Part shown: piece after piece, positions 1-64,000 of the stretch
Layout of the letters: every line of letters begins with the position of its first letter
How positions within the stretch are numbered: the first letter of the stretch is position 1
Virus record (IMG/VR): IMGVR_UViG_3300045988_172839
Span: 160,001 to 224,000 of that record
Source: a virus
Strand: one strand, 5' to 3'
Length of the DNA: 64,000 bases
Notes under the pieces: generated by a model
The model's input: the letters and a program-made list of their open reading frames with translations, nothing else
Database searches by the model: none
Told to the model about the DNA's origin: nothing
Made by a program: the position numbers and the translations under genes

Positions 1-851
1 GTTTTTAGAACATCTTTAAAACTTGCAATCGGAATATCTAAGCCCAAACGTTTATTTACAGAAGCTCTCACCTTACTCAAAATAGTTGAACCCCCAATCT
101 TAATGGTGTGTTTCAGACCATCAAGTAGTCTTTGACTGGATACCCCAATTAAATCTGTAGTGCCTTCTCCAAAGTCAATAATCAATACATTTCGAGAAGC
201 TAAGTCTTCGTAGTGTGGGCGAGGGTTCAAATCTCCATAACTCAAGAATACTGAGTAGAATGAAGAATACCCTTCTGGGAAAACTTTAACGGACTTAACG
301 GTTAAATTAAACTCAGCCCCATCATATAAGTTCTTATAAGTGAAGGTGCGAACTAAGTTCTGTTCAAAAGTTTCACGTGCGGAAACTGCTTGTGCTGGTG
401 GAACCAAGACTGCAAACTCAAACTCAACTTCTTTCGACAAAGCTTGTTTTGTGCTTGAAGGATACACCATGTTTACCCAATCCAAAACCTTATCCATTAA
501 GTTAATCAATACAACATAGTTTAGTAAATGATCTGCTTTTGCTAAGTGACTAACTGGTGTTTTTAGTTTCTTAGGTAAGTTTGCAGTCGCTAAGTCACCC
601 CACATTACCAACTTTTCATGTTTAATTGCTCCTACTTGTAGAGAAACCTCAAGAACATTGGAGTCTAACTTGTTAAAGTCCTCAGACTGAATATAAGAAG
701 AGTAAGTTTCCTTAGTTGCTAAGTTCTCCACTACAAAGTGGTTATCAAGCAAATAACCGCGAGTGTGTTTGACGATACCCTCTTCCACAATCTGCGCTAC
801 TGCGCGTGTTTCTGAGTTTCCTAAATCAACCATCAATTTTACTTGTGTCAT
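1..851 (-). CDS. Actin-like ATPase (ParM/Alp family), N-terminal 283 codons; 3' end lies beyond window start
   Basis: Own translation from ATG at 849-851 (not in ORF track because there is no stop in the window): MTQVKLMVDLGNSETRAV... Actin-fold phosphate-1 (VDLGNSETR) and phosphate-2 (LIIDFGEGTTDL) motifs; open to position 1. Confidence 0.6.
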   Translation of the reverse strand, partial: MTQVKLMVDLGNSETRAVAQIVEEGIVKHTRGYLLDNHFVVENLATKETYSSYIQSEDFNKLDSNVLEVSLQVGAIKHEKLVMWGDLATANLPKKLKTPVSHLAKADHLLNYVVLINLMDKVLDWVNMVYPSSTKQALSKEVEFEFAVLVPPAQAVSARETFEQNLVRTFTYKNLYDGAEFNLTVKSVKVFPEGYSSFYSVFLSYGDLNPRPHYEDLASRNVLIIDFGEGTTDLIGVSSQRLLDGLKHTIKIGGSTILSKVRASVNKRLGLDIPIASFKDVLK

Positions 852-934
852 TTTTACACCATATTCTTTCTATTTCTTGTTTTATGAAAATAAGCCTTAA
901 ATTCAAAGGGAATTTTCAAAAATTTGAAAATAAC

Positions 935-2494
935 CTATTTTCTCAATATCAATTTCAATTCATCACCATATAAATAAGGCACAATCAAAGCGTTTTTAGG
1001 GTTCAATTCCTTGTCGAAGGAGTCCACAAACATGCCGTCCACTTCGTAACCCCTCTTTTTAGCGGTTTCTGTAAAAGTAGAATAAGCTAAACCGCTATAT
1101 GAGATAGAATGGAAGTGAGAACTCAATAAAAACTCGTTTTCATAAGCTAGTTCTCTTAACTTATCAAAATTCGCTAACAAATTAGACATAACATGAATGT
1201 TCAAACCTTGTTGAGTTGCACCTTGTTCGAGGATACCGAGTTCTTTATCAAGTGAAGGGAAGTGAATAGAACCTTGCACCGAAACCAAACCAAATGCTCC
1301 TTTATGACCTTGTGCATCAAAGTTATGATGTTCAAAGAAGTCTCTATACTCCAAATCGGAATGGAAACCACGAACAGAACCTCTAAGCCAGTTACCGTTC
1401 TCAACTGCTGCAATCAAAACAGTTTTCCCTAAATCGCGCAAATACTGGTTCGCAATCAAACCAAGGAAAGAAGTGTACTTAAAGTTGTACTCTTTCGAGT
1501 CTGAAGTCTCTGGTATTTCTGCTACATCAATAGCCAAAATAACCAAGTTTTCAAGCTCAGTAACCTTCAAGTAGTCCTTCATGTGGTTCAAAATACGAGT
1601 CCGAATGGTTTTAGCTGGTAAAGAGTAAAAGAAATCTGTTTGGATACACAATCGGAACAAATACTCGCTCAAATTAAGTTGATAAGAAGCGTTAATGTAA
1701 GGAGACAAACTAAAGTCCACAAACGTTCTATCTAACTTTTCGGGATACCGCTGAAAAGCAGTAGGTACTTCTGCTTGGCACACCTGAGTGAGTTTTCGAA
1801 GTGTTGGCATCTCTAACAAAGGAGTTTCAAATGTAACCTTTAAAATCTCTCTTGCTAAAGAGTTTTCAATATCTCGTACATCAGAAAGCAAAGTGACTCC
1901 GTGCATAGCTACCCACTCTGTCTCAATCTCAACCTCTAAAATCTTAGATAGAGCGTTTAAAACAACACCTGTTCCTGACCAAAATCTTAATTCTTCTGGT
2001 TCAAAATCATACTGATTATTGATTAAAACCGCTTCGCCAATGAGGGATACCCCATCCCCTGTTTCCTCTGTGGTAGACCAATATTGTTGGTTGGGAAACA
2101 AAGGATTACTCTCAACCTCATGGTGGTCTAAGCTAATCACAAAGTTCCCTTGGGAAGTCAACTGCAACATTTCCTCTGCCGAAATAGAAGAGTCCACATT
2201 GATAATGATTTCATTTTGGTGGTACTCTGTAGGGATATAGTAGTCAAATTCACCCCAACTGCGCTCTTTCTTGACGAGTTCTTCTTCGACCATGCCGTGT
2301 CTTCTATCTGTGTTGACACACGAATGGAAAGAATATCCTGCTTTCTGCAACATCTTAGCACCTACGTACCAAGCTAAGAGACCATCAACGTCCGGGTCGC
2401 CTTTAAGGACTATAGGGTAACCACGTGCTAAACCATTTGCCAATACTTGTTTAGCTAAGTCAACACCCTTTAGTGTGTAGTTTTGTAAGTCCAA
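935..2494 (-). CDS. DHH-family phosphoesterase, RecJ-like
   Basis: 519 aa; GDPDVDG (DHH motif I), SLDHHEVE (motif III), QGHKGAFG (DHHA1-like); TTG start with AGGAG upstream. Confidence 0.6.
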   Translation of the reverse strand: MDLQNYTLKGVDLAKQVLANGLARGYPIVLKGDPDVDGLLAWYVGAKMLQKAGYSFHSCVNTDRRHGMVEEELVKKERSWGEFDYYIPTEYHQNEIIINVDSSISAEEMLQLTSQGNFVISLDHHEVESNPLFPNQQYWSTTEETGDGVSLIGEAVLINNQYDFEPEELRFWSGTGVVLNALSKILEVEIETEWVAMHGVTLLSDVRDIENSLAREILKVTFETPLLEMPTLRKLTQVCQAEVPTAFQRYPEKLDRTFVDFSLSPYINASYQLNLSEYLFRLCIQTDFFYSLPAKTIRTRILNHMKDYLKVTELENLVILAIDVAEIPETSDSKEYNFKYTSFLGLIANQYLRDLGKTVLIAAVENGNWLRGSVRGFHSDLEYRDFFEHHNFDAQGHKGAFGLVSVQGSIHFPSLDKELGILEQGATQQGLNIHVMSNLLANFDKLRELAYENEFLLSSHFHSISYSGLAYSTFTETAKKRGYEVDGMFVDSFDKELNPKNALIVPYLYGDELKLILRK

Positions 2495-2530
2495 TCGTCT
2501 AAACTACTCCTTTCCGAGTTTAATAAGACT

Positions 2531-2559
2531 ATTATAGCAGATTTTAAAGGGTTTTGCAA
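2531..2559 (-). promoter_or_regulatory. Sigma-A type promoter for the RecJ-like gene
   Basis: Minus strand TTGCAA-17 nt-TATAAT; first iteron box (2563-2571) abuts the -35. Confidence 0.55.
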
Positions 2560-2562
2560 ATC

Positions 2563-2707
2563 TTATGACAACTGTATGACAAGAAAAATAAAGGTAAGAC
2601 AGAAAAGGAAAATGTTAGGACGAAAACAAATTAAGATGAGCCAAAATAAGGAGGAGATGAGACAAATTTAAATTAAAGTAAGACTAAATAAATTAAGTTT
2701 GAGACAA
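2563..2707. repeat. Second array of the same 9-bp box (about 8 copies)
   Basis: GAC cores at 2567, 2578, 2598, 2619, (degenerate 2640), 2661, 2682, 2703. Confidence 0.8.
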
Positions 2708-2747
2708 AAGAAAAACCTCACCGAAGTGAGGATACCGCTGAGTGAGT

Positions 2748-3047
2748 TTACTCAGACCAAATTACAATGCTATCATTTCTAACAAAGACATGAAGAAGAC
2801 CACCATCAAAAAGCTCAGATAAGTCGCTCTTTATTTTATTCGGAGAATTGAACTCAAAAGAATGAGAACCCCACTCATCCTCTGTGTTTGTTGCAGAAAC
2901 CTCTAAAAAACCATGAGTATAATATCCTCTGGAGGTTTCCTTAGAAGACTGAGGAAATGTAATCTCAATATCCCAAACTCTGTAATTTTTAAAGTGAGTT
3001 GAAATAAACTCACTAAGTAAAGGCAAAAAAGTGCTTGTATCTTTCAT
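2748..3047 (-). CDS. Hypothetical protein
   Basis: 99-aa minus-strand ORF tiling the gene array; no recognisable motif. Confidence 0.6.
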   Translation of the reverse strand: MKDTSTFLPLLSEFISTHFKNYRVWDIEITFPQSSKETSRGYYTHGFLEVSATNTEDEWGSHSFEFNSPNKIKSDLSELFDGGLLHVFVRNDSIVIWSE

Positions 3048-4335: not shown

Positions 4336-4602
4336 TCAAAATTCCAACTGCAAGGGCGAGATACCCAAACCTGTATCTTCAAAGCGAGAATGTAGCTCAT
4401 CTAAGACAGAACGAGGTACAATCCAGTTACTACCTAGCTTCTCTAAGTGAATATCTACCTTCTCACCTAGTAACTCTCCTGACTTCAAGAGCGTTTGCAA
4501 ACGTTTTGCAGTAGCTAAATAGTGATAATCACCATAAAATTCGACTAGGTAGACTTCTTTGCTCCGACTGTAAACATGTTTTGCCATATAGAACCTCACC
4601 AA
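4336..4602 (-). CDS. Hypothetical protein
   Basis: 88-aa tiling minus-strand ORF. Confidence 0.6.
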   Translation of the reverse strand: MVRFYMAKHVYSRSKEVYLVEFYGDYHYLATAKRLQTLLKSGELLGEKVDIHLEKLGSNWIVPRSVLDELHSRFEDTGLGISPLQLEF

Positions 4603-5828
4603 TCTAAGTTATCTGCAATATATCGACCCAAATGTTCAACAACCTCAACAACTAAGGCATTACCCATAAAGAACTTTCTGCGAGTGTCCGATACCGTAAC
4701 TTCTTTTCCCTTGCTCAATTTAACTTGTGTCCAGTTGTCCGGGAAACCTTGTAAACGCTCTGTTTCGAGTGGTGTTAAAAGTCGATACCCTTTCTCATCT
4801 TCAATTAAATGAGTGGTGCGACTTATAGAACCCTCAGAAGTTAACAAAGTTCGAGAAGGTAAATCTGCGCTATCTACTAAAGCCATAGCACCTTCAGAGT
4901 AAATGTAAGTGAAACCTTCAGAGTTGGTGCGCTCAAACTTCTTAGCGCCTCTCAAATAACGGAACTTGTTTACTTTGTCCTCAGATAAATAAAGTTCCTG
5001 TGGTAAATCAGAGGGATTTTCTAACACATCTCTGAGAACCAAACTAGCGCCATCATAATAAGGCTCTAGCTCCTTTGTAATGACTTTACCCTCTATCATA
5101 CTACCTGAGTTCCAAAACTGCGTAGAAAAAGAGTCTGAGACCTCTACAATGTCTTCTGGTAAAGTGAAAGACAAAGCTCTGTCTTTTATAATCTCAGCTT
5201 TAGTTTCATGCGTGGATTCGAAGATACCACTAGTGCCTACTCCGAAATCATTCAGTGCTTGTTGTTGCGTGAAATAGTCAGTGTCTTTTCGATAGACAAA
5301 GAGAAAGACTCTCTTCCTTCTTTGACACCAACCATAATCTGCAGGGTTAACGACCCTCCAATCGACTCCGTAACCTAAATCAGCAAAAGCTCTCAACATA
5401 ATTGCAAAGTCTCTACCTCTTTGTTTTGAGGGAGCTTTTAACAAGCGATCTACGTTTTCAAGGAGTAAATATTTAGGTTGTGAAAGTCTAGTCGCTCTAA
5501 TGATTTCCCAAAAGAGGACTCCCTTTTTACCCTCGATACCCTTTTCATCTTTTTTGGTTCTTGCTACAGAGTAATCTTGACAAGGAAACCCACCTACAAT
5601 CAAATCTACCTCACCTCTTAAGGCAGAAAAGCGCTCGTCAGAAATTTTAGTGATGTCTTCGTTCCAATTTTCACTGTCTGGGAAATGGTAATTGTAGACC
5701 TCAAAGGCATCTTGCGACTTTCTCAACGGTTCAAACTGGTTCGACCACAAAGTTTTTAAAGTAGGACTTGCTTTTTCAAGACCTACTCGGAAACCTCCTA
5801 CTCCTGCGAATAATTCAAGTACATTCAA
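4596..5828 (-). CDS. DNA (cytosine-5)-methyltransferase
   Basis: Motif I ELFAGVGGF, IV GGFPCQDYS, VI LLLENV, VIII QRRKRVF, X GNALVVEV. Track ORF runs to 5897, but in-frame TTG at 5828 preceded by AAGGAAGAGG is the likelier start. Confidence 0.9.
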   Translation of the reverse strand: MNVLELFAGVGGFRVGLEKASPTLKTLWSNQFEPLRKSQDAFEVYNYHFPDSENWNEDITKISDERFSALRGEVDLIVGGFPCQDYSVARTKKDEKGIEGKKGVLFWEIIRATRLSQPKYLLLENVDRLLKAPSKQRGRDFAIMLRAFADLGYGVDWRVVNPADYGWCQRRKRVFLFVYRKDTDYFTQQQALNDFGVGTSGIFESTHETKAEIIKDRALSFTLPEDIVEVSDSFSTQFWNSGSMIEGKVITKELEPYYDGASLVLRDVLENPSDLPQELYLSEDKVNKFRYLRGAKKFERTNSEGFTYIYSEGAMALVDSADLPSRTLLTSEGSISRTTHLIEDEKGYRLLTPLETERLQGFPDNWTQVKLSKGKEVTVSDTRRKFFMGNALVVEVVEHLGRYIADNLDW

Positions 5829-5853
5829 GTTAATTAGTCCCTCTTCCTTTAAA

Positions 5854-6495
5854 TTAAATAGAACAAGTTCCCCAAGTATAACACAATAGCGCATCACGCT
5901 TTAGTTCTACATTCGGATAATCTTGTAACAAACCCCTTGTATCAAAACGCTGATTTACAATAACTGAGTAACCATTTGGCGTTTTGTGCAAAGTTACAGA
6001 TATTGGAGGTCGCTTTTGACCTTTCTTTGTCTGCGTAGTCTCATGTGCAATATGTAAGTCTTCAACAAACTTAGTTAACAAAACCTCAGTATCTTGACCT
6101 TCAACTGGATCGAAGTCGAACAACCAATGCTGCTTATCTCCATAAGCATTTTCTACCTTAGCTGCAAGAGAAGCTACTTTCGGAGGTAATGTAGATAAAT
6201 CAAACTCTTGATCCAACATCTTGTGCTGCAAAGCCTTAAAGGTTTTTGAGTTAGATCGAGGATTAATAGAGACATACATCCTCGAAAACTCACCAACTTG
6301 ACCGTCATTAACAAAAACTTGAAACTGGGACTTAATTTCTTCAAAACCCTTAGTTGTAACAAATGATACTTTTCTCTCTTTAAACGTTTCAAGGTTCTTG
6401 TTATCCTTATTTCTTGAGACAAACAAGACAACATTTAACTTATCTAAATCAAAATTAACGTCTGAAGCATCTTTAGTAAGTTTTACCATAATCAA
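5854..6495 (-). CDS. Hypothetical protein
   Basis: 213 aa; weak AEP/PrimPol-like strings (WLFDFDP, TPNGYSVIV, RFDTRG), not enough to call. Confidence 0.55.
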   Translation of the reverse strand: MIMVKLTKDASDVNFDLDKLNVVLFVSRNKDNKNLETFKERKVSFVTTKGFEEIKSQFQVFVNDGQVGEFSRMYVSINPRSNSKTFKALQHKMLDQEFDLSTLPPKVASLAAKVENAYGDKQHWLFDFDPVEGQDTEVLLTKFVEDLHIAHETTQTKKGQKRPPISVTLHKTPNGYSVIVNQRFDTRGLLQDYPNVELKRDALLCYTWGTCSI

Positions 6496-10783: not shown

Positions 10784-12991
10784 TCAAAGTTTCAAATCGA
10801 AGTCTGTGAACGCTCCAAGTTGTTCTTCGACCTTGGCTTTTTGCATGCGTTCTTTTAAACTCAATTCCTGCTTCAATTTTACACCATTTAGTACCACTCC
10901 GTCAAGTGGAGTCCACGATTTTAACGGGATACCCATTTCTTTCAAGAATGGTGAAGCTTTTCCTCTACGAGTGAGGTAAATCGTAACTTCATCACCACGT
11001 GTTCCTGCTACGAAGTGAACCCTACGTTCTTCTTCATAACTTAGCTCTCCACTCAAGGTATAAGGAAAGACACCATCAGAATCATCAAAAATAATGTTGA
11101 CATTGGCTTCACGACCTTTAAAGCTGAACGGTGTAGCAAAGGTCAAGAGCGAAGTTCCACCTCTTTTTGCTTCACGGATTTTATTGTTGATAAAGTCCAT
11201 GTTGCTAAAGAAGTCTGTAACTGTGTCGCTTTCTTCCGCCAAGGTTGAAATCGTGCCTACTACTTCCGCATTAGAAGGTTCACCCCAATAAAGAACATGA
11301 GCCAAAAGCTCTTTGAAGAGAACCATTTCTCCGGGAAACTCTTCTCCATAGGTCTTTCTCAACTTGTCTACCAAAGTAGCCATAGACTTGAGACCATATT
11401 CTTGCGCAATGAAATCCAAGTAAGCGTAGTTATCGGAGAACAAGATATTTTTGTTCTCTGGAATAGCGTTCATTAGGCGCTCTGCGAGAGTCTTGGCATC
11501 CCAAAGTTTCAGCTCTGGTGCTAAGACTTTCAAGTTGTTCTTAATATCAACTAAACCACGACCACGCACCATTTCAATGAGGTTCCAAACCTTTTGATAC
11601 CGCGCGGTTCTGAAATCCCTTACGTCTCCTAGTAAGTTGAAGTCTCCTTGGCGCTTAACTGCGTAAAGAATAGAAGACGGAGAGTAAGTGAAGTTCACTC
11701 GTGACTGAACTGCAATAGTCTTTCCTTCAGCTAAATACTTATCAATCAACTGCAAAGAAGCGTCAGCCATATCTTTTACAGAGTCAAATTGGTAAGCTTC
11801 AAGGACTCCAACCTCTTTAAAGGAGCGAAGAGAGTGTTCGTAGCGATTTGAGTTCTTCTCAATCGACTTGGTAATGGGTTTCAAAATGTTTGAAGGGCAA
11901 CGGTAAGATACCGAGAGTGGGTACTTAGTTGGTTGGTACTCCTTGTCGAACCACTCCATGACCTCTGGGTTTGACCCACGGAAACCATAAATCGACTGGT
12001 CTGGGTCTCCTACAATAACCACACGTGGACAATTCTCGAAAATAGGTTTCAAGACTTGGTACTGCAACTCAGACATATCTTGCGCTTCGTCCAACATGAA
12101 GTATTCGTAGCGGTATTTATAGAAGTTGACCCAAGCCATTTGAACTGGATCATCTTTCTTCTCTACGACCATGTACTCGTAAACAAGAGACATCAAATCA
12201 TCAAAATCAATGACGTTCATAGAAGTCTTCAAGGCTTGGTAATCTTCAACTACCATAGGAAGTAAATTTCTTGGGAGGTTCAAGCGTTTTGCCGTTTCGG
12301 CTGCTTCACCAAATTGGTACTCCGTAATCGAGCAGTTACGGTAGTTTGAAATAATTGCAGCCAAGTCTCTTTTATCTTGAAGAGAAATGTAGTTACTTCC
12401 TTCTTCTCCCAAATCATGTTTACGGAAGAGACGACCCATAATTGCATTGAAAATACGAGAACCCTCAGAGTCTCCGCCACCAGTGTCCAACATTTGAACA
12501 TAGTCTGATTTTGACTTATCTGTGAGGTTAAACCCACGAAGTCTCAAAAGTTCAAAGAACTCTGACTGTAGTGTACTGAATGTGAGGTCATTTGTGGATA
12601 CCCCTGAGAGACCTAACTTAGCGAAAGTGCGCTCTACATTCTGTTTAATCTCTTCTGCTCCTTTGCTGAGGAAAGTTGTGACCCAAGCGACTTTCTTTCC
12701 TCTCTGAGCTGGAGACAAGCGACCAATCGTTTTATCCTTTGCTAAAATCAATGAAATCGAAGTGGACTTACCTGAACCCGCAGTCGCAAACAACTCTGTG
12801 CGACCTTCTGAGCGAATAATTGGCTCTAGTTCTTCCAAGTTATAACCTTTAGAAGCGACTAGCTCCAAATACTTCTTCATATTTTCTTCGTAAATTTGTT
12901 CCTCAGTAATTTGTTGCTCAGAATTTGCACTAGGTTTTACACTAGCAAAACCTTTGTCGTTACTGAGGTTGTCGAGTGCTGATTTATACAT
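10784..12991 (-). CDS. UvrD/PcrA/Rep-like SF1 DNA helicase
   Basis: Walker A ATAGSGKST, motif II FMLDEAQD, motif III VGDPDQSIYGFRGS, motif IV SYRCP, motif VI VAGTRG. Confidence 0.85.
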   Translation of the reverse strand: MYKSALDNLSNDKGFASVKPSANSEQQITEEQIYEENMKKYLELVASKGYNLEELEPIIRSEGRTELFATAGSGKSTSISLILAKDKTIGRLSPAQRGKKVAWVTTFLSKGAEEIKQNVERTFAKLGLSGVSTNDLTFSTLQSEFFELLRLRGFNLTDKSKSDYVQMLDTGGGDSEGSRIFNAIMGRLFRKHDLGEEGSNYISLQDKRDLAAIISNYRNCSITEYQFGEAAETAKRLNLPRNLLPMVVEDYQALKTSMNVIDFDDLMSLVYEYMVVEKKDDPVQMAWVNFYKYRYEYFMLDEAQDMSELQYQVLKPIFENCPRVVIVGDPDQSIYGFRGSNPEVMEWFDKEYQPTKYPLSVSYRCPSNILKPITKSIEKNSNRYEHSLRSFKEVGVLEAYQFDSVKDMADASLQLIDKYLAEGKTIAVQSRVNFTYSPSSILYAVKRQGDFNLLGDVRDFRTARYQKVWNLIEMVRGRGLVDIKNNLKVLAPELKLWDAKTLAERLMNAIPENKNILFSDNYAYLDFIAQEYGLKSMATLVDKLRKTYGEEFPGEMVLFKELLAHVLYWGEPSNAEVVGTISTLAEESDTVTDFFSNMDFINNKIREAKRGGTSLLTFATPFSFKGREANVNIIFDDSDGVFPYTLSGELSYEEERRVHFVAGTRGDEVTIYLTRRGKASPFLKEMGIPLKSWTPLDGVVLNGVKLKQELSLKERMQKAKVEEQLGAFTDFDLKL

Positions 12992-13099
12992 TTTTCTCTT
13001 CTTTCTTCTATTATATAGTGAGACTGAAATCAGTCTAAAATCTTTTCTGAATAATTAAAATCTAATTTGTTATGTTTATACTAAATTGAGAATAAGGTG

Positions 13100-13979
13100 A
13101 AAAACTGTGAAAAATCCAAAATCCGAGTATTAGTAAGTTACTACCAAGTTAGTGCTCGGAAAAAGGTAAAATTTCATAACATTGAGGAGATACCTACCAA
13201 GATGTAATTAAATCAAGGGTTTTGCTTGATTTTCTATAAGAAAATAATGAAAATACTTGTCAGATAAGGGATTTACTTGTTTTCTGAGGAAAAATACCTA
13301 CTCATTTTAGAAAATCCAGTTAAAAGTGGCAAGTGAAAACCAAAATTGAGGTCTTCTTTTAGATACCTTCTAAGTGGGGTTGAGAAAAGAGGTTTAATCT
13401 CTTGTGTGCCAAGGACTTTCAAAGTTGTTGCTAGTGAAATTTGAGTTTTAAGTGGTAAGCTCTGAAAAAACTTTGGAGGTATGTTTAGATACCCTCTTCT
13501 CTAGGTTAGGAAAACTAGGTTTAACCCAAGCGTCCCAAAGAGTTTGGAAAGTTTAAGCACGTGTTTTCGATTTTTAACTTCCTCAACCTTAACTAGAGAA
13601 ATTGAAAAATCGAAAAGTGTGACTCGATACCCTCTTGTAACTTTGACATAAAAGGTTCAAAACCTAGTAGTACCAAGTAATAGAAAGCCTACCATCTACT
13701 AAAACTTATTTGAACAAAAGAAAATACTAATTCGACCGAGAGAAAATTTCAAGCTAGGATGAGATACCCTCAAAACCCTGTTAAATCAAGGAAATTAACT
13801 TTTAAGTTAGTTAAACAGTTGCTATCACTAGGTTTCTGAGAACTTGACCTAGTTTGCAATCAAAACCTCATAGTTATTTTATCAATTTGGAGAAAATTGC
13901 GAGGTGTGATGAGATACCCACTTACTAACTTGACAAACCTTATTAAATCAAGGTTCAACACACTTTCACCTAAGAGAAC
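13100..13979. repeat. ORF-free region with degenerate 125-175 bp units anchored on GATACC
   Basis: GATACC at 13189, 13362, 13488, 13626, 13763, 13913; recurring GAGG-N5-10-GATACCC and TTAAATCAAGG / AGGTTTAA strings. Confidence 0.5.
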
Positions 13980-23879: not shown

Positions 23880-23925
23880 AAATTTATTCCTATTTTCCTT
23901 TCTAAAATATAAGAAACCCCAAAGA

Positions 23926-24000
23926 AATTTGGGATACCCAAAGAAATTTGGGATACCCAAAGAAATTTGGGATACCCAAAGAAATTTGGGATACCCAAAG
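23926..24000. repeat. 19-bp tandem repeat x4 (GGGATACCCAAAGAAATTT) with internal inverted arms
   Basis: GATACC at 23933, 23952, 23971, 23990; each unit contains TTTGGG-ATA-CCCAAA; intergenic between 24007 and 23879. Confidence 0.9.
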
Positions 24001-24006
24001 GTAGTT

Positions 24007-25135: not shown

Positions 25136-25166
25136 ACAGTTTCTCACTTTCTTCTTTATTTTCTTT

Positions 25167-25195
25167 ATTATATCAAAAAAGAGGAAATTTGTCAA
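25167..25195 (-). promoter_or_regulatory. Consensus extended -10 promoter
   Basis: TTGACA-17 nt-(TGA)TATAAT on the minus strand. Confidence 0.75.
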
Positions 25196-25200
25196 AGAAA

Positions 25201-25230
25201 AAGAGAGGATACCGCTTGGTAAACTCTCTT
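25201..25230 (-). terminator. Terminator-like hairpin with GGTATC in the loop
   Basis: 7-bp stem AAGAGAG/CTCTCTT, 16-nt loop containing the polar hexamer, T-rich tract then the -35 of the next promoter. Confidence 0.5.
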
Positions 25231-25240
25231 TTTACATTCT

Positions 25241-25683: not shown

Positions 25684-25687
25684 GCAA

Positions 25688-25720
25688 AAAGAGAGGATAC
25701 CGCTAGGTAAAGCTCTCTTT
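25688..25720 (-). terminator. Terminator-like hairpin with GGTATC in the loop
   Basis: 8-bp stem AAAGAGAG/CTCTCTTT, 17-nt loop containing the hexamer, flanked by A/T runs. Confidence 0.5.
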
Positions 25721-25724
25721 TTGC

Positions 25725-30319: not shown

Positions 30320-30952
30320 TCATAAAATACTTGGTTTGTCAATAGAATCAAGCGTTCCGAAGTATAACAAATTCTCCAGTTTCTTACCCCATGCAGTTCC
30401 CTTAAACCAAACCACATATAAGTCAAGTGAACCTAAAGAAATGACTACAGATAAAAGGAATGTCAAGAAAACATAGAAAATATAACTAAGTGGAGGTATC
30501 ATCGGATGATTGGGTCTTGGTAAGTTAGCTTTCAAAAAGTCAAAAAGCCCATAAAAAGCAAGACCACTTACGGTAAAAGCAAAAATAGGAAGTGACATAT
30601 AACCTAAAACAAAAGCAAAAACCTGCAAAAGATACCGAATGTACTCTTCTTTGGGTTTGTTCTTGTACAAAGTTAGTTCAAAATCGTCACCTACTTTGAC
30701 CCACTTATAGTAAGTGTAATCAAGGTTCAAATCCTCAATAACCTCTGAGAGTAAACCTAAACTAAAAAGCTCCTTTGACAAAATTCGAAGAGTTAACTTT
30801 TTTGATCCGCATAATGAAGGAGAAAAACTCAAAGTCTTAGTCATTACTTCAAAAACCTTATCTCTCACCGATTGAGACATAGGAGAGCTAACAATATCTT
30901 TAGGCAAGAAAACATAAGCATCATCGAAATAAGTTTGAATAAAATCAATCAT
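30320..30952 (-). CDS. Membrane protein, paralog of 30945-31547
   Basis: Shares (E/L)LTLYK(N/T)(K/R)P followed by multi-TM region. Confidence 0.6.
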   Translation of the reverse strand: MIDFIQTYFDDAYVFLPKDIVSSPMSQSVRDKVFEVMTKTLSFSPSLCGSKKLTLRILSKELFSLGLLSEVIEDLNLDYTYYKWVKVGDDFELTLYKNKPKEEYIRYLLQVFAFVLGYMSLPIFAFTVSGLAFYGLFDFLKANLPRPNHPMIPPLSYIFYVFLTFLLSVVISLGSLDLYVVWFKGTAWGKKLENLLYFGTLDSIDKPSIL

Positions 30953-39142: not shown

Positions 39143-42100
39143 TTAGTGTTTCGACTTGTCCATTTCTTTCCAATTCTCAGCAACAGAGGAACCTGCTTGA
39201 CGGAAGACTCTTGCAGCCTTATTGAAGAATCCACCGACATGACTTGCTCCTTGGAAACCAACCCCAAGACCTGCACCTATAGCCGAAGCGACTGCTCTAC
39301 CAGTATGACCTTCAGCCATGTGTTCTCTTGCTTTCTGCCAACGTTTTTGACGGAAAGATTTCCCTTTGCTATTTCCTCTACGGAAAACTTGTTGTCTACG
39401 GTCATAGCTTGATAAGAACGGTTGTCTTTCAAGTATCATTTCTTCAACCTCTGCTCTTGTAAAGGTGTATGTACCGACTTGTAAGTCTTGCAACATAGAA
39501 TAACGCTTAAATGCAGTTTCTACAACTGCTTTAGAACTACTAGACTCCATAAGGTCAAATTCTCTATAAGCATAATCCATAGAGTCAAAGACTAAAGAAG
39601 TTGGGTTCAAATACTGTCTAATCAGTTTCCAATCGAATAATTCTCCGAAACCTCCACTGTCCCATAAAGAAATAGAGTATGGGGAAACTTCAGGACTAAA
39701 TTGGATACCCTCTTTCTCTGGTTCATAAAGTAAACCATTGAAGTACAACTGACGACCAATAATTTCAATCTTACGAACTCTACTCCAATCACCAAAGTAA
39801 GTGTAAATATCCTCTAACAAATACTCTCTCAAGTCTTGGTCATCTTTAATGACTACACCTGCTTGATGTGAAGCAACTCGACTCATAGTTGTTCTATCAT
39901 TCAATTCCTCAGTAGAAACAATCGTCTCTACTTTAGGAATACTAGCACCTTGCAAACCAAAGGCAGACTGCAAAACAGACATAAGTGCTTGTTCGGATAC
40001 CCCTAATTGACTTGCTAAAGTGGAAGCAACATTTACAGAGTCAGCTACACTAGGTGTTTTCGCTTGTGCGCTCTCATAAGGCTCAGATTGCTCTCTGGTC
40101 CATTTTTGAGGTTCAACCTCTAAGTTATCGACTGATGAGTTTAAATCGCTCTCAGACGAAACTGGAGATTCTGAGGTAGGCTCTGAGATAATTTCTTCGT
40201 GAAGGTCTGAGAAGCTTGAAGTGTCTTCTTCCTCAGAAAGAGAGGTTGGTTCTTCTACTTCATCTGCTTTGACTTCTTTAGTCGCAAACTCTGGACGGAG
40301 GTCTACAATATTAGAACCCTCAGAAACCTGATCAGTTGCTCCACCACTTTGTTTAAAATCAACTAACTCAGTTAATAACTCATTAACTTTGTAGTAAACA
40401 GTTTCTTTTTTCTTAGCTAAATAAGCGTCTTGGTTGGTGAAAGCCATAACGACATCTTCACAAGAGAAGTTCCACTCAGGTCTTAAATCTAAAAGGAACT
40501 CTAAGTAAGAACCCTTATAACCCATTTGTGCTACAACCAGGTCAGCAATCTCTCTTGCACGTACAAAAGAACGACTAATATCACTGGAACCTAAAGCCTT
40601 CAAATACCCTAGAACACCAATACGTTCATCCCACTCACTTGGATTGTCTGGATTTGAATTGCGAGACTTAATAGACTCTGCTTTGCTTCCTAAGTTCTTC
40701 TCCAACTGAGTAACACAGGAACCTTGGGAGTCACCTAAAATCAAATAAGGTTTAAAGTAGACTGCCCCACCCTCCATTTGAGAGTTAACCGAGCGAGCTA
40801 AACCTTTATTTTGTGGATTTTCGTCTCGAATAGTTGGGAAATCTACACTACCAAAATAGGCAAATCTACGAGAACTTGAAGTGAGATACCGCTTAGAGTC
40901 TGACCCATTTTGACTAGACCAATACTGAGACTTCTCAGTACCTTTGTAGCCAACCATGAAGCCTGTGTCTAAGTTCAACAATGTATACAACCAAGGGTCT
41001 ACTACACCATTCTTATAGTCACAAGCTGCTTTAAAGGAGGATGCATCATTTCCTTTATTTCTAGGAAGTCGTTCAAAACCACCTATGTTAAAGCTCTGAC
41101 CCACTAAATAAATACTTGAACGTAAACTCTCCTCATTTTGAAAGCCTGCTTTTTTCAACTTGTTCAATAGTTGCATACTTTCATCTAATTTATCGTACAA
41201 GTCTCTTAAATAAGCTCTATCTCTATAATCATCGGACTTTTCTTCCAAAGCTCGTTCAAATTTGCGAGTTGCTTGTTCTTTTAGTAAACCACCTAAGTAA
41301 TTTTGACCTAAATCTACAAGCTCATCTAATTCTGGATCTGACATAATACTTTGGAACCAGCCACCATTAGAACTCAAAGCCTTAGAACCAAATAGGTTAG
41401 ACCAGTTTGTAACCTCGTCGAAAATTCCGAGGATACCTTCATCACCTCCAAGTTTTTCATAGAGAGCAACATCACTAGCTTTTACAGTAGCACGGAGAGA
41501 AACAATACCCATGACAAGTAACATGTGGCGATAAAAAGCCATATCTCCCCAAGCACCTGTGTAACGCTTTTGAGAACTGCTCACACCACTAAACCACTTA
41601 GGTATAGACTTGTCGAACCAACCCATAATCGTTGGGTTGTTATCCCAATCCAACTGCTCAGAAATGTTGTTGACAACGGGCATAGCAGACTTATTGAAAA
41701 CACCAGCTTGGATAAAGTAACCTTTCGGAATTCCATTAGAATCAGCTCCACCAAAGGCAATGTAGTAAGGAACCATTGTGTCTGGTTTACCATCACCTCC
41801 AAATACTGGACGACCGTTAGCAATCGATACCGCTAAACCATTAGAAATGGAAACTCCTTTCCCTGAGCGAGAACCAGCCCAATAAGTGAGCACCAACTTT
41901 GCTCCAGCGTTTATAGCTGCTGTTAGTTCATTAGACGAAGTTAAAATACGACCATCAAGACCTTTACCTAACAACTGATAACCATAAGTTAGTTTCTCAC
42001 CTTTTCTTTGTAAAGACTCCAAAGCTTTATAGGCAAATAAAGGCTCACTCTCTGCAATTTCTGGTTTTGCAATATGAGAATAGTGACTCACTCGAACATC

Positions 42101-43387
42101 TTTAAAGTCTTTGACTAAAGGAGCTTCAAAGTCGCCACCATAATCAAAAACATCAGTGTATAAAGCACTAGTATGATTGAACTCACTGTTTTGCAACTCC
42201 GAAATTGGGGCTGATACCACCCACTCAGCGGACGCCCATTTCTCGTCTTCCATCATTCCTACATGGTTTTTCAAGATAGAAAATGTTGAGAAAGTAGCTT
42301 TGAACTTAGCTAGATAATCTTTGAACACTTGGTTGTCTGTTGGAGTAATTGGTCTTGTCGCACCTTTACCGAAGTAAGCAACTTTGTCTGACCAAAAATA
42401 CCCATCTTGGTAAGTATCACACACCAACACCAAATACTCCCAAGCTCTCTTTGTTAAGTAATCTTTAATTGATTCACGCTGACCATCTGAACCTTTCCAC
42501 TTCATAGGAACTGAAGGGAAGTTCAAATCATCTTTTTGAACCGTTACTTTACGACTTAAAGCAAACTCCAACATCTTGTAAGGGTAATAAATAGGTTTAC
42601 TTGACTCTACAATTTCTTTTAAGTCTACTTGTCTTGAAGTGTTTACCGAAATAGAGCGAAGAGGAGAAAACATAGCTTCTCCTGCATAGTAAGATGCAGT
42701 ATAATTTGGTTGGACTGCTTGTTCTCCTTGGATAATCACCATAGGCAGATCAGGTAGACCAACTACGACCCCTTCGTATTTATCTAATTCATAGCCTGCT
42801 TCAAAAGCAAAATCATAAATATCAAGCAAAGAGTCAACCAAAGAAACCACATCAGCGTTCAATTTACTTGACGACTTTAAAGCCTTTATTTTTCTAGCGA
42901 AAGTCTCATCTTCAACAGAAACCAAACTGTCTTTGATTTCTGAGGATACCGAAGTGGGGTCAAACTCTAAATCTAAAGCCTTTGAAACAGTCGCAATATC
43001 ATCAATTAAGAAGTGTTCTAATTGTTCGGCTTTTAAGTCTTTCAAAGAATTAGAGCGCAAGTCGGAGACCGCTAACTGATTTTTCAGTTGGTTTTCAACA
43101 GAATGAACTGCTAACTCTGACTCTAACTGAGTATAAATCGGTTTTAAGTCACTAAAACCAAAGGTAAACCCGCTTGCTTTTCTATCTAAAGAAAGTTGAC
43201 CGAAGGCACAAGCTAACATACAAGTAGCATAGAAATAAACGACCTCATCTGAACCTTCAAGTCCGTTTTCTACTAATTCCTCTACAGAACTGTAGACTAC
43301 ATCTACAATCTGTTGATTGTCTAAACCTAAACCAAGTTGGTTTGAGATTTTCTCCATCTGGTCTTGTACTTTACTCACTAATCTCAC
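39143..43387 (-). CDS. Very large protein (1414 aa) with possible P-loop NTPase core
   Basis: KLVLTYWAGSRSGKGVS (Walker A-like after a beta-strand) and GILGIFDEVTNW (Walker B-like hhhhDE); acidic Ser/Glu linker; Gly-rich C-terminus; start codon uncertain. Confidence 0.6.
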   Translation of the reverse strand: MRLVSKVQDQMEKISNQLGLGLDNQQIVDVVYSSVEELVENGLEGSDEVVYFYATCMLACAFGQLSLDRKASGFTFGFSDLKPIYTQLESELAVHSVENQLKNQLAVSDLRSNSLKDLKAEQLEHFLIDDIATVSKALDLEFDPTSVSSEIKDSLVSVEDETFARKIKALKSSSKLNADVVSLVDSLLDIYDFAFEAGYELDKYEGVVVGLPDLPMVIIQGEQAVQPNYTASYYAGEAMFSPLRSISVNTSRQVDLKEIVESSKPIYYPYKMLEFALSRKVTVQKDDLNFPSVPMKWKGSDGQRESIKDYLTKRAWEYLVLVCDTYQDGYFWSDKVAYFGKGATRPITPTDNQVFKDYLAKFKATFSTFSILKNHVGMMEDEKWASAEWVVSAPISELQNSEFNHTSALYTDVFDYGGDFEAPLVKDFKDVRVSHYSHIAKPEIAESEPLFAYKALESLQRKGEKLTYGYQLLGKGLDGRILTSSNELTAAINAGAKLVLTYWAGSRSGKGVSISNGLAVSIANGRPVFGGDGKPDTMVPYYIAFGGADSNGIPKGYFIQAGVFNKSAMPVVNNISEQLDWDNNPTIMGWFDKSIPKWFSGVSSSQKRYTGAWGDMAFYRHMLLVMGIVSLRATVKASDVALYEKLGGDEGILGIFDEVTNWSNLFGSKALSSNGGWFQSIMSDPELDELVDLGQNYLGGLLKEQATRKFERALEEKSDDYRDRAYLRDLYDKLDESMQLLNKLKKAGFQNEESLRSSIYLVGQSFNIGGFERLPRNKGNDASSFKAACDYKNGVVDPWLYTLLNLDTGFMVGYKGTEKSQYWSSQNGSDSKRYLTSSSRRFAYFGSVDFPTIRDENPQNKGLARSVNSQMEGGAVYFKPYLILGDSQGSCVTQLEKNLGSKAESIKSRNSNPDNPSEWDERIGVLGYLKALGSSDISRSFVRAREIADLVVAQMGYKGSYLEFLLDLRPEWNFSCEDVVMAFTNQDAYLAKKKETVYYKVNELLTELVDFKQSGGATDQVSEGSNIVDLRPEFATKEVKADEVEEPTSLSEEEDTSSFSDLHEEIISEPTSESPVSSESDLNSSVDNLEVEPQKWTREQSEPYESAQAKTPSVADSVNVASTLASQLGVSEQALMSVLQSAFGLQGASIPKVETIVSTEELNDRTTMSRVASHQAGVVIKDDQDLREYLLEDIYTYFGDWSRVRKIEIIGRQLYFNGLLYEPEKEGIQFSPEVSPYSISLWDSGGFGELFDWKLIRQYLNPTSLVFDSMDYAYREFDLMESSSSKAVVETAFKRYSMLQDLQVGTYTFTRAEVEEMILERQPFLSSYDRRQQVFRRGNSKGKSFRQKRWQKAREHMAEGHTGRAVASAIGAGLGVGFQGASHVGGFFNKAARVFRQAGSSVAENWKEMDKSKH

Positions 43388-47402: not shown

Positions 47403-47405
47403 GAA

Positions 47406-47439
47406 AAGAGAGGATACCGCACGAAGGTGAACCTCTCTT
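47406..47439 (-). terminator. Terminator-like hairpin with GGTATC in the loop
   Basis: 8-bp stem AAGAGAGG/CCTCTCTT with an 18-nt loop; immediately after the 47448 stop. Confidence 0.45.
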
Positions 47440-47447
47440 CACAATAT

Positions 47448-49392: not shown

Positions 49393-50145
49393 TTAATCTA
49401 ATTTGAAGCCTTGTTCCCAAGAAGCAGTGTCAAATCCTGCAAAGGGATTGGTGTCTGCGCTTGGTGTCGATTTAGGCGTTTCCTCAACTTTAGGAACGTC
49501 TACCTCTACAGTTTCAGTTGGAGTTGCACTACCAAATACACCACTCAACAAATCAACTGCGCTTGTATCTGTATTTGAAGGGGTTTCTACACTAGTTGGA
49601 ATTTCTACGGTGTTTGGGGATACCACTTGCTCTTCCTTAGTTGGAACCGTTTCTTCAAATTTAAGTTCCTTTGCAGGTTCTGGAATAAGTGGAGAGTCCC
49701 CTTTTGCAATATCAACAACTGCATCGTTTTCCAACATTTGAGCAGTCATCTCTTTTGCTTCTGCTTTGACTTCTTTGCTATCTGCTACTTCAACATCATA
49801 AGAAACCGCAGACACATCTTCTCCTGTAATTTCTTTAATGGTATCATAGTCTTTCTTTTCAACCGCTTCAAAGAACTTCTCTAAGCGCTCTGCTTCAGCA
49901 ACTTTCTCAGCCAAGATTTTACTTGCAAGTGCTTTGTAAGCTTCAATCGACTCTTTTGTGAACTCTGTTTCACTAGCGAGTTCCATTTTAATCGGATACC
50001 CAAGGGAGTTGAGGATTTCAACTTCTTTCAAAATCGCTTGAACACGAGCCTTTTTAGACCCTCGAATTTCTTGCTCTTTGCGGTTATGCTCCAATGCTTG
50101 TTTATTTAGAGACTCTAATCGAGCCAATGTTTGTTCTACTGACAT
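49393..50145 (-). CDS. Hypothetical coiled-coil protein with acidic Pro/Thr/Glu-rich tail
   Basis: 250-aa tiling ORF. Confidence 0.6.
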   Translation of the reverse strand: MSVEQTLARLESLNKQALEHNRKEQEIRGSKKARVQAILKEVEILNSLGYPIKMELASETEFTKESIEAYKALASKILAEKVAEAERLEKFFEAVEKKDYDTIKEITGEDVSAVSYDVEVADSKEVKAEAKEMTAQMLENDAVVDIAKGDSPLIPEPAKELKFEETVPTKEEQVVSPNTVEIPTSVETPSNTDTSAVDLLSGVFGSATPTETVEVDVPKVEETPKSTPSADTNPFAGFDTASWEQGFKLD

Positions 50146-56608: not shown

Positions 56609-56864
56609 CTGTTACCTCATCTTTAAACAAAACCTCTCGCTTAAATCGACCATCTAAAAATTCATCTAATGGACGGAGCCAGTGTAGACGATTAGCATCT
56701 CCAAGGCGCTTATAGGATACCGCAAGAGTTAAATCAGACTCCACTATTACAATGTCTTTAACAGTGTAAAGGTTGTCTGTCTTTAAATGTCGCCAAAGAG
56801 AACCTATGGGAACTTCTTTACGTTTAAGAGATAAATCTTCTTGCACTTCTTCTAGTGATTTCAT
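56586..56864 (-). CDS. DUF1653-like small protein
   Basis: GSLWRHLKTDNLYTV...VSYKRLGD...WLRPLDEFLDGRFKR resembles the DUF1653 pattern. Confidence 0.55.
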   Translation of the reverse strand: MKSLEEVQEDLSLKRKEVPIGSLWRHLKTDNLYTVKDIVIVESDLTLAVSYKRLGDANRLHWLRPLDEFLDGRFKREVLFKDEVTDGSNYRR

Positions 56865-57631
56865 AAACTCAACCTCTCCACTACCGCTGCCTTGTTTTCT
56901 ACCAAAGGAACTAATACCTCATGTATCTGAGAACCAAATAAACTTAAAAAGTTGTCTATATCTTTTACTTGAAATGAAAGTCCTTCGCCAAATTGATACC
57001 GCTTCTCTTCCACATATAAGAAAGTTGAATTAGTAGGTACTTGCCACTTCTTCTTTAGCAACGCTTTTTGCCCTGCTTCATCATTATCCGGAACACAAAT
57101 TACCTTGTCGAACAAGTTAAGAACTGCTCCCTTATAAGCATTTACGTCCGCTCCCATAGTCGCAATAGCTGGTACACCATAAGCGTCCAAATGAAGAGCA
57201 TCGAAAATACCTTCAACCACCACTACAGAACCTCGATACCGCTTGTCACCGTTAAAGGACTTATCTAAGGCTCGATCTAAATTGAACCAATGACTTTCTT
57301 TAGAGAAGTCTTTGTCAGCAATAGTGTAGTATTTTGGAAACCCTTTTCGCCAACCTACTAAAGTTGCAATCGAACCATCTGCGTTACGAATAGGTACAAC
57401 CACTCGACCTTCTAAAGTAAAAGTTCCTTTATCTAACCAACCTACCTCATCTAAGGCATTCATCAACTCAATATTAACTGAAGGACTTGTTGCGAAACCT
57501 AAATAATTCTCAATCAAATAAGACTTAATCTCATCATGAATGTACTTTCGCTGAGTGGCGACTTCGGATACCGAGTCTAAATCGATAAGGTGTGACTTAA
57601 CCAATTCAAAAACTTCTTCTTTGGTTCTCAA
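56861..57631 (-). CDS. Toprim-domain DNA primase (DnaG-like)
   Basis: VVVVEGIFDALHL (Toprim E-G-x-x-D) and ICVPDNDEAGQKA (DxD-x-x-G). Confidence 0.6.
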   Translation of the reverse strand: MRTKEEVFELVKSHLIDLDSVSEVATQRKYIHDEIKSYLIENYLGFATSPSVNIELMNALDEVGWLDKGTFTLEGRVVVPIRNADGSIATLVGWRKGFPKYYTIADKDFSKESHWFNLDRALDKSFNGDKRYRGSVVVVEGIFDALHLDAYGVPAIATMGADVNAYKGAVLNLFDKVICVPDNDEAGQKALLKKKWQVPTNSTFLYVEEKRYQFGEGLSFQVKDIDNFLSLFGSQIHEVLVPLVENKAAVVERLSL

Positions 57632-62591: not shown

Positions 62592-62592
62592 C

Positions 62593-63012: not shown

Positions 63013-63047
63013 CTTAACATCCTCCTAGGAATTCAATCTAACTGCGC

Positions 63048-63404
63048 TTACGGACACGCAACCCAAGTTGGGTATTCTAAGTCATACCCTACATCATTTG
63101 GTGAGAATAATACATCCTCAATGTAAGACTTAGAGTCCTTGTCATAGTGCATCAAAGTCAATGTCATTGAATGTTTAAATGCAATTCGAATGACTGCAGT
63201 TAAAGCTGGTGTTAAACCTGTTACATAGATAATTAAATCATCATGGTCTGTAATCCCTAACTCATTGAACCTATCTACTACTTGATTTCTCAAAGTTTTA
63301 GGGTCGATGGGGAAAGTAATAGAACCCTCAGCGAAGATGTAAGTTGTTACATCTTTAATTTCATGTCGGTTGTCGCAAAGACCTAATTTGTAAGTTTTAG
63401 CCAT
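63048..63404 (-). CDS. Hypothetical protein
   Basis: 118 aa; AGGAG RBS and consensus promoter 63446-63474. Confidence 0.65.
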   Translation of the reverse strand: MAKTYKLGLCDNRHEIKDVTTYIFAEGSITFPIDPKTLRNQVVDRFNELGITDHDDLIIYVTGLTPALTAVIRIAFKHSMTLTLMHYDKDSKSYIEDVLFSPNDVGYDLEYPTWVACP

Positions 63405-63445
63405 AGTTTTATTCTCCTATTTATCTTTTATTTTAAGTATGTTTT

Positions 63446-63474
63446 ATTATAACACAAATAAAAGAATAAGTCAA
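63446..63474 (-). promoter_or_regulatory. Consensus promoter
   Basis: TTGACT-17 nt-TATAAT on the minus strand. Confidence 0.7.
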
Positions 63475-63477
63475 GTA

Positions 63478-63744
63478 TTAAAAGACTTGACCTACTCCCA
63501 ACACAAGTAAAAGCAAAATAAAGGATATCGAAAGTAAGAAAATCATACCGTTAAGACACCATTGAACAATTTTCTTCTTTTCTGCCTTAGTTGGTGCGTG
63601 TTTGAATAACTTCCAACAAATACGAAACCAACTCAAAAAGAGAAATATCAACAGTCCAATAAAGACATAAAGGTGTTGATCCATGAAACTTAAAAAAGCG
63701 TGTGCATAATGTTTTAAAGTGTTCCAAAGTTGTGTATAGTTCAT
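63478..63744 (-). CDS. Small membrane protein
   Basis: 88 aa with two TM helices. Confidence 0.55.
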   Translation of the reverse strand: MNYTQLWNTLKHYAHAFLSFMDQHLYVFIGLLIFLFLSWFRICWKLFKHAPTKAEKKKIVQWCLNGMIFLLSISFILLLLVLGVGQVF

Positions 63745-63926
63745 GAGTGTAGTTTTTCTAAGTCGGAATTAGAGAGTAAGCTTAACTGAAAACTATCTAA
63801 AGTTTCCAATAAACCAGTGTTTATTTCAAGGTCGAACCATTCACCTTGAATGTTCACTTTATAAGTATAAGAACTGTGAGACCTATATCGTTTATTCAAC
63901 AAATAAATTAAGCGAAGAAACAACAA
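63741..63926 (-). CDS. Hypothetical small protein
   Basis: 61 aa, TTG start, 4-nt overlap downstream; start uncertain. Confidence 0.4.
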   Translation of the reverse strand: MLFLRLIYLLNKRYRSHSSYTYKVNIQGEWFDLEINTGLLETLDSFQLSLLSNSDLEKLHS

Positions 63927-64000
63927 ACCATAATGTTGATCTAACCAGATCCAAAAGGAGCGCTCAATTAAACGGTGTTTAGAATCTCTTATATTTCCCC

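Follow-up and report, generated by a model that had tools for sequence, protein, structure and literature searches.

Why would a short DNA word recur about every half kilobase, and almost exclusively on one strand, of a giant genetic element? This question is raised by the 64-kb stretch of IMG/VR record IMGVR_UViG_3300045988_172839 analyzed here (the window), which occupies ~170.3–234.3 kb of a human oral metagenome contig of 238,733 bp. The hexamer GATACC occurs 115 times on the plus strand of the window but only twice on the minus strand, the greatest strand asymmetry of any hexamer in it. All non-nested open reading frames (ORFs) of at least 100 amino acids (aa) lie on the minus strand, and on this coding strand the word reads GGTATC. 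A first-pass annotation, made from the sequence alone, had described the one-way genes and counted 114 copies against 2; exact counting added one copy and confirmed its coordinates to within one base (4360 and 4690, not 4359 and 4689). The examined part of the 238.7-kb contig comprised the window and 9 kb beyond it. In these 9 kb, past the window start, the run of motifs continues (15 vs 0). The populations in the window are as follows.

GGTATC population: 1..64000, minus (coding) strand, read as GATACC on the plus strand; 115 copies with a mean spacing of 549 bp
Inverse copy 1, GGTATC: 30495..30500, plus strand; one of only two
Inverse copy 2, GGTATC: 49840..49845, plus strand; the second of only two

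Dinucleotide shuffles of the window yielded 13.7 ± 3.5 copies of GATACC on both strands together (maximum 23), and Markov models of orders 0–3 predicted 6.8–17.9 copies on the plus strand. When synonymous codons were shuffled within each gene, the expected number of ORF-internal copies was 18.7 ± 3.9 (maximum 27), compared to 94 observed, a 5-fold excess at 19 standard deviations; shuffling of codon order gave 11.0 ± 3.2. The ORF copies are distributed over all three reading frames (25/32/37), and motif density is higher in intergenic DNA (2.6 per kb) than in genes (1.7 per kb). Based on the codon shuffles, the use of three frames and the intergenic density, the excess is not a coding artefact, in agreement with what the first-pass annotation had argued. 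Thus, both excess and polarity survived exact strand counts, the Markov null and the codon shuffle.

The flanks of the motif are biased, as had been noticed by eye: a purine precedes GATACC in 89 of 115 copies and C or G follows in 101 (C 57, G 44), while all 9 copies of GATACCA occur in the context GATACCAC. On the coding strand the extended motif is (G/C)GGTATC(Y), with weak flanks. No information was detected past approximately ±2 bases around the 115 sites, indicating that the copies are not parts of a longer repeat. Their spacing is more regular than random, with a coefficient of variation (CV) of 0.62 compared to 0.99 for random placement, and none of 10,000 simulations reached a value as low. 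Gaps below 100 bp make up 1.8% of the total (16% expected), and the largest gap is 1827 bp.

Near-identical DNA was not found in phage and plasmid collections, and the link from the window to a known replicon was made by protein search only, through the following gene.

Walker A/B ATPase, 1414 aa: 39143..43387, minus strand; the marker linking the window with pXO16 and over 100 relatives

In the 350-kb Bacillus thuringiensis plasmid pBTHD789-1 (= pXO16, of serovar israelensis; strain AM65-52 is one carrier), the ATPase has a homologue annotated as hypothetical, with 24–28% identity. Despite this low protein identity, window and plasmid are syntenic for genes encoding a Toprim protein, SbcCD-like proteins, the 1400-aa ATPase, DnaJ, UvrD, and RecJ-like and ParM-like proteins. 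Judged by these shared core genes, the synteny and the single gene orientation, which holds for pXO16, the window and every sampled locus, the window appears to belong with the pXO16-like giant elements. pXO16 is a conjugative plasmid whose sequence has been dubbed 'terra incognita' and whose coding sequences (CDS) all have one orientation (PMC6199540, PMC9673590). It is reported to transfer single-stranded DNA, with no relaxase or origin of transfer (oriT) identified (PMC6199540, PMC9673590). Within the family, conjugative transfer has been shown experimentally for pXO16 only.

The complete pXO16 record (454 features) was searched de novo for enriched, skewed words. The top word differs from that of the window: GGGGTA, with 658 copies on the coding strand and 5 on the other, usually in the form (A/T)GGGGTA(G/T). 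It occurs 13–26 times per 10-kb bin around the 349.6-kb circle without its polarity ever switching, and the G+C skew is likewise positive around the entire circle. The spacing (mean 531 bp, CV 0.71) gives a density close to that of the window, and the largest gap, 2071 bp, is below that of all 2000 random placements. ORFs hold 502 copies compared to 117.7 ± 10.3 after the synonymous shuffle (37 standard deviations), and no flanking similarity was found around the pXO16 copies. Note that frame 0 (Gly-Val) dominates among genic copies in pXO16 (324/83/95), whereas the frames are even in the window. The co-resident plasmid pBTHD789-2, which served as a proxy for host replicons, showed no enrichment of GGGGTA (3/4 in a 50-kb stretch).

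We then considered the relatives, that is, loci around homologues of the ATPase, with a reach of ±10 kb around the known gene. About 80 further relatives carry GGTATC, GGGTATC, GGGTATT, AGGGTA or GGGGTA, in all cases on the coding strand. They stem from oral and other metagenomes, IMG/VR, and metagenome-assembled genomes (MAGs) of Lachnospiraceae, Clostridia and Mogibacterium. The words, with example counts on the coding and the other strand, are distributed as follows.

GGTATC: 41 metagenome loci with an ATPase 74–97% identical to that of the window, also locus L012 (66%); 47/2, 43/0
GGGTATC: a clade with an ATPase 32–38% identical; 42/0, 50/0, 47/0
GGGTATT: other distant loci, 24–33% identical; 32/0, 27/0
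AGGGTA: other distant loci; 61/1, 48/0 (GGGTA 117/1)
GGGGTA: Lachnospiraceae, Clostridia and Mogibacterium MAGs and others; 54/0, 66/3, 41/0

Every relative tested thus has a coding-strand word based on GGGTA or GGTA. The 15-mer GGTATCCTCTCTTTT, common to three terminator-like hairpins of the window, recurs in many related contigs and is usable as a family probe; it retrieved many further chunks from ~23 related IMG/VR contigs, with uniform polarity in each contig, while unrelated contigs had counts of 2/2 and 7/6. No opposite-strand gene block was present in any sampled locus, and the chunks sampled from the related contigs, up to six for each, showed no switch of polarity. The strand-exclusive word is therefore a trait of the whole family of giant Firmicute elements.

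Individual sites are retained better than other hexamers: 60% of window sites are shared with locus L018 (other hexamers 31%) and 41% with L012 (14%). The number of sites is maintained while the sites move (40/40 for L018, 39/46 for L012). Such turnover at constant number is expected if selection acts mainly on density and coverage. In three respects the distribution points to a reader encoded by the element and not by the host. The GGGTA/GGTA core spans a Bacillus plasmid and contigs from Lachnospiraceae, Clostridia and Mogibacterium MAGs; the plasmid co-resident with pXO16 lacks the enrichment; and the word drifts from clade to clade in the manner expected of a protein and a site that evolve together. 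From these sequence comparisons we infer an element-encoded reader.

Several side observations were made among the relatives. Four loci with an ATPase ~32% identical to that of the window (L067, L073-L075) have a second strand-exclusive word beside GGGTAT, namely GAGGAC(A), with 11–15 copies vs 0 in favor of the coding strand. In contig BNJT01000212.1 (477 kb; L032, L079) the marker ATPase is present twice, with 90% and 68% identity to the window protein, and in the region of the second copy long ORFs are few and the motif signal is weak; an assembly of long reads from two related elements, chimeric or error-rich, probably explains this contig. The related IMG/VR contigs L099-L125 (up to 284 kb) are plasmid-like elements filed as viral genomes. 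In the window itself, the 20 largest ORFs had no match to capsid, portal or terminase families in PHROGs.

What could read such a word? The first-pass annotation had offered four mechanisms. Its interpretation is partly supported: none of the four is proven, and the suggestion of a primase recognition site gained most. We favor a form of this suggestion, at a probability of roughly 40%, in which the element would prime its lagging or transferred strand at the motifs, by a split DnaG-type primase of its own. The candidate for the catalytic half of this reader, by its domain content, is encoded in the window.

Toprim protein, 256 aa: 56861..57631, minus strand; DnaG-type catalytic domain, no zinc finger, no helicase-binding domain

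The protein matches PDB entry 2au3 (E 2.4e-5) and TIGR01391 dnaG (E 4.5e-15). pXO16 encodes a Toprim_2 protein (WP_000389279) and a separate DnaG zinc ribbon (PF01807; WP_000365721), as well as a DnaB-like helicase (WP_001162832) and a family-A polymerase that includes a proofreading exonuclease. Thus, in both cases the primase is encoded by the replicon. The 64-kb window encodes no DnaG-type zinc ribbon, and the zinc-finger partner of its primase must therefore lie elsewhere on the element; in another family member, the zinc-ribbon gene has the same orientation and lies 70 kb from the marker gene.

In form, the word also resembles a primase site: a short single-strand word with a G-rich 5' part, a T, and one or two cryptic 3' bases. 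The sites of T7 primase are GGGTC and TGGTC (also GTGTC). The word formats GGGTA and GGTATC resemble the T7 site GGGTC, the AtTwinkle site (G/C)GGA and the Firmicute DnaG site YTA, although this is resemblance only. Firmicute DnaG starts at d(CTA) or d(TTA), opposite the middle T and with the 3' A cryptic, and its specificity is set by zinc-finger residues (PMC2978363). AtTwinkle, a T7-type primase, uses the site 5'-(G/C)GGA-3', with two cryptic 3' bases (PMC5737085).

From the motif statistics, the family-wide distribution, the host independence, and the presence and type of the primase genes, we infer a reader, a direction of replication and a transferred strand as follows. The Toprim catalytic protein and the separate zinc-ribbon protein would act together with the DnaB-like helicase and the family-A polymerase. 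If replication follows transcription, as suggested by the G-rich coding strand, the motif strand would be the lagging-strand template under co-directional, unidirectional replication. The same strand would enter the recipient during single-strand conjugative transfer and would need repeated priming there. Synthesis would begin across from the T in 5'-GGTA-3', with the 3' A (and, in the clade of the window, also TC) being cryptic, and would yield a short C-rich primer, pppACC(C/G) in the window and pppACCCC in pXO16. Enrichment would be needed because G-runs are rare at a G+C content of mostly 31–40% (up to 46%); by chance, pXO16 would have one site per 2.7 kb. Selection would raise the density to about one site per 0.5 kb with no gap above ~2 kb, leaving a start site in every Okazaki-sized stretch. 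Inverse copies in pXO16 are about as frequent as composition predicts (3 vs 4.2 expected), which fits a signal that is harmless on the other strand.

More tentatively still, the hexamer may be viewed as a replicon-wide, co-evolving address code for the split primase, and as the first case of a primase specificity visibly reshaping a genome. About 20% of the required sites would arise by chance and selection would have placed the rest, in all reading frames. Priming at 0.5-kb intervals would then be open to a 240–350-kb element without the host primase, both on its lagging strand and, in a new host, on the transferred strand. The drift of the word through GGGGTA, AGGGTA, GGGTATT, GGGTATC and SGGTATC would track the evolving specificity of the primase.

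Several observations weigh against a priming role. Nothing links the primase to the motif directly, and to our knowledge d(GTA) is not among the reported DnaG start triplets. In T7, the primase sites are unskewed and not markedly enriched (GGGTC 39/55, TGGTC 79/62, GTGTC 43/42), so that primase specificity is not known to sculpt a genome. Likewise, none of 61 other viral contigs with DnaG-type zinc-ribbon primases showed the trait, whereas the words described here are enriched 5–10-fold and evenly spaced. The zinc-ribbon gene of the clade of the window was not found by a protein search, which reached only Bacillus relatives, or by two IMG/VR scans, in which L217/L297 was the single member of the family recovered, the other hits being unrelated phage primases. 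Inverse copies are mildly depleted in the window (2 vs 7.6 ± 2.5), a depletion that pure priming does not predict. Of the 156 intergenic copies in pXO16, 83 precede a start codon by 0–12 nt and overlap a Shine-Dalgarno-like AGGGG; part of the intergenic excess there may therefore be translational. Finally, genes, G+C skew and motif all point the same way, and orientation thus cannot separate replication, transfer and transcription.

Among the alternatives, an element-specific Chi-like signal fares best, although we consider it unlikely. An element-encoded reader would recognize the word when a helicase–nuclease enters at a one-ended break, at a collapsed fork or a rolling-circle tail, and the enzyme would be attenuated or redirected, protecting the element and starting recombinational repair. 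Like known Chi sites, the word has many Gs, is over-represented and runs with the presumed leading strand; its density is comparable to that of a 5-mer Chi, and even spacing would serve such a signal too. The family also encodes potential processing enzymes, namely a UvrD-like helicase, a RecJ-like DHH exonuclease and an SbcC/SbcD-like pair adjoining the marker gene. In the window these are represented by the following genes.

UvrD/PcrA-like helicase: 10784..12991, minus strand; conserved and syntenic across the family
SbcD-like phosphoesterase adjoining a weakly SbcC/Rad50-like protein: window
Other nameable window proteins: RecJ-like DHH protein; PcsB-coiled-coil/CHAP hydrolase

The UvrD/PcrA-like helicase is a possible alternative reader of the motif and provides a context for rolling-circle or conjugative DNA processing. 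Known Chi sequences, which differ even among Bacilli, are GCTGGTGG in E. coli, AGCGG in B. subtilis, GCGCGTG in L. lactis and GAAGCGG in S. aureus. A word of this kind is specific to the host and common to its replicons, whereas the present word is specific to the element and, with counts of 3/4, not enriched on pBTHD789-2. Host AddAB or RexAB is an unlikely reader, given a core shared by a Bacillus plasmid and Clostridia MAG contigs. In the sampled loci, covered at full length only for pXO16, no RecB-family nuclease and no AddAB- or RecBCD-type reader was identified. A strand purity of 98–100% is far above that of known Chi sites, and the density, one per 0.5 kb for a 6–7-mer, differs from theirs too.

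Improbable, in our view, is an orientation signal resembling the FtsK-orienting polar sequences (KOPS) or the SpoIIIE recognition sequences (SRS), which would be read by an element-encoded double-stranded DNA translocase or SMC-like loader, such as the FtsK/SpoIIIE-domain protein of pXO16. With KOPS, SRS and architecture-imparting sequences the motif shares its polarity and the near absence of inverse copies, as well as its G-richness, and the mild avoidance of the inverse orientation in the window fits such a role. The transfer region of pXO16 encodes the FtsK/SpoIIIE-domain ATPase and large unclassified Walker ATPases. However, the former matches the motor domain PF01580 only and lacks the gamma domain that reads KOPS, and no FtsK/SpoIIIE gene is present in the window. 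The motif is ~20 times denser than KOPS or SRS, and its inverse orientation is not depleted in pXO16. Neither a polarity switch at an origin nor a gamma-domain reader was found; since polarity runs around the whole circle, pXO16 has no dif-like point of convergence. Moreover, pXO16 is reported to transfer single-stranded DNA, which has a polarity of its own. The conserved core across Firmicute groups, the counts on the co-resident plasmid and the unswitched polarity of pXO16 together disfavor the host Chi or KOPS reading that the first-pass annotation had listed first.

A signal at the level of RNA is about as improbable. All transcripts would carry GGUAUC or GGGUA, which a factor encoded by the element could bind to act in antitermination, RNA stability or translation. 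Motif and transcription run in the same direction without exception in every locus, the start-codon-proximal copies of pXO16 (83 of 156 intergenic ones) would be accommodated, and three terminator-like hairpins of the window include the motif.

Terminator-like hairpin 1: 25198..25233, minus strand; AAAAAGAGAG…CTCTCTTTTT, motif in the upper stem (TACC-AAGC-GGTA)
Sigma-70-type promoter following hairpin 1: 25195–25167; perfect
Terminator-like hairpin 2: 25686..25722, minus strand; second copy of the hairpin-plus-promoter module, promoter 25683–25655
Terminator-like hairpin 3: 47403..47440, minus strand; of the same kind as hairpins 1 and 2

The promoter of the first two modules is TTGACA-17-TATAAT with an extended TG. 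All three hairpins, noted previously as terminator-like, are visible with their T-runs, but a terminator scanner run over 24900–25900 called neither of the two in its range; hairpin 1 was missed because its loop exceeds 8 nt. An RNA-level role is difficult to reconcile with copies in all three frames along the full length of genes, without positional preference, and with an even 0.5-kb spacing that disregards gene boundaries. Moreover, the window motif is not Shine-Dalgarno-like, and only 3 of its 21 intergenic copies lie near a start codon. Rfam and tRNA scans of the window gave no match.

Less probable again is a strand-specific modification or nick site, or a one-way orientation that evades Type III or Type ISP restriction. 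For evasion there is the precedent of T7, in which the EcoP15I site CAGCAG, an asymmetric hexamer in a genome with all genes one way, is fully strand-restricted (0 on one strand vs 36 on the other). For modification, a gene in the window was a candidate.

Orphan C5 methyltransferase: 4596–5897; window

In T7, however, the favored strand has only ~1.6 times the expected number of sites (36 vs 22.4). Evasion accounts for the polarity here but not for the 5–10-fold enrichment or the regular spacing, a division already drawn in the first-pass annotation, and a core word kept constant across several Firmicute groups would be unexpected among hosts whose restriction systems should differ. The proposed link to the methyltransferase is unsupported as an explanation for the family: pXO16 has the trait, none of its 454 features is annotated as a methyltransferase, and the enzyme therefore cannot be the family-wide reader. 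Nicks at 0.5-kb intervals, all in the same strand, are also hard to square with replication. Four further candidates were dropped: DNA-uptake sequences are not strand-restricted; most copies lie inside genes, unlike sigma-factor promoters; the Type IIS site of BciVI, GTATCC, fits only 53 of 115 copies; and G-quadruplexes are not compatible with a single G-run per copy.

A neutral origin from mutation bias, codon usage or a dispersed repeat, for which one could cite the purine- and G-rich coding strand throughout the window and pXO16, is effectively refuted by the synonymous shuffles in both replicons, the conservation of sites 2–3 times better than other hexamers, the regular spacing, the absence of flanking similarity and the different words of different clades.

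Returning to the window, several local structures carry the motif.

Motif cluster: 13189..13918, minus strand; six copies 126–173 bp apart, ORF-free, upstream of the UvrD-like helicase gene
ORF-free gap: window 12992-13979; pXO16 record 335639-337327; locus L015 15819-17175; locus L016 16044-17090
19-bp tandem array: 23918..24000, minus strand; 4.4 copies of CCCAAAGAAATTTGGGATA, 100% match

The cluster had been seen in the first reading as lying in an ORF-free region at 13.0–14.0 kb and is present at 13.19–13.92 kb. Four of its six copies lie within a degenerate 36-nt unit with a period of ~140 bp, which reads …GAGGGTATC-N~20-AATTTTCTC on the minus strand. An ORF-free gap of 1–1.7 kb occurs at the same syntenic position in relatives, a few genes upstream of the UvrD/PcrA-like gene. 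By its position and structure, the cluster region may be an origin, an oriT or a promoter array. The 19-bp array, also noticed previously, is perfect; one motif copy is created per junction, and every unit contains the palindrome CCCAAA/TTTGGG. It is probably a non-coding, iteron-like element because its period is not a multiple of three. ORF 23415–24062 has the array at its 5' end, unless the true start of the gene is further downstream, which would place the array just in front of it. The ORF itself has a Cys4-like pattern (CDIC…CCYC) that is not of the DnaG type.

The 1414-aa ATPase serves here as the family marker, with no claim as reader of the motif. Profile searches against Pfam, PHROGs, NCBIfam and PDB assigned it to no family. 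Together with its homologues it shows invariant Walker A (GSxxGKG) and DE motifs (alignment A1), and it sits in a region homologous to the transfer (tip) locus of pXO16. By this location, the protein may represent a new type of conjugation ATPase.

The oral 'Inocle' elements resemble the present element in their human mouth habitat, their size and some gene content (RecJ, gyrase). They are described as switching ORF orientation at ori and ter, whereas the sampled chunks of the related contigs never switch, and the InoC marker was not found in the window. The literature searched holds no account of these words or of genome-wide enrichment of primase sites; reviews of pXO16 give the common CDS orientation and not the motif, the primary papers (Makart et al. 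2015, 2018) being outside this search. In kind, then, the motif belongs to the known class of polar over-represented words. What is new is a word that is specific to an element, family-wide and dense, with near-total strand restriction and a drifting sequence.

Few features of a sequence tell how a replicon is replicated, repaired or moved; polar over-represented words, with Chi, KOPS and SRS as examples, belong to these few. The present motif exceeds all three in density and strand purity and is specified by the element, not by the host. The giant elements that it marks form a large, little-studied family, with close relatives in dozens of oral-metagenome and IMG/VR contigs, and the motif provides a simple test by which such elements can be recognized and their contigs oriented. 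It also opens a route into the biology of pXO16, including its oriT, relaxase and mode of replication, in a plasmid that is cultivable and genetically tractable. If the motifs are indeed priming sites, the family would be the first example of genome-wide selection for such sites, and its clades would offer a natural series of primase/site pairs in which the evolution of primase specificity could be followed.

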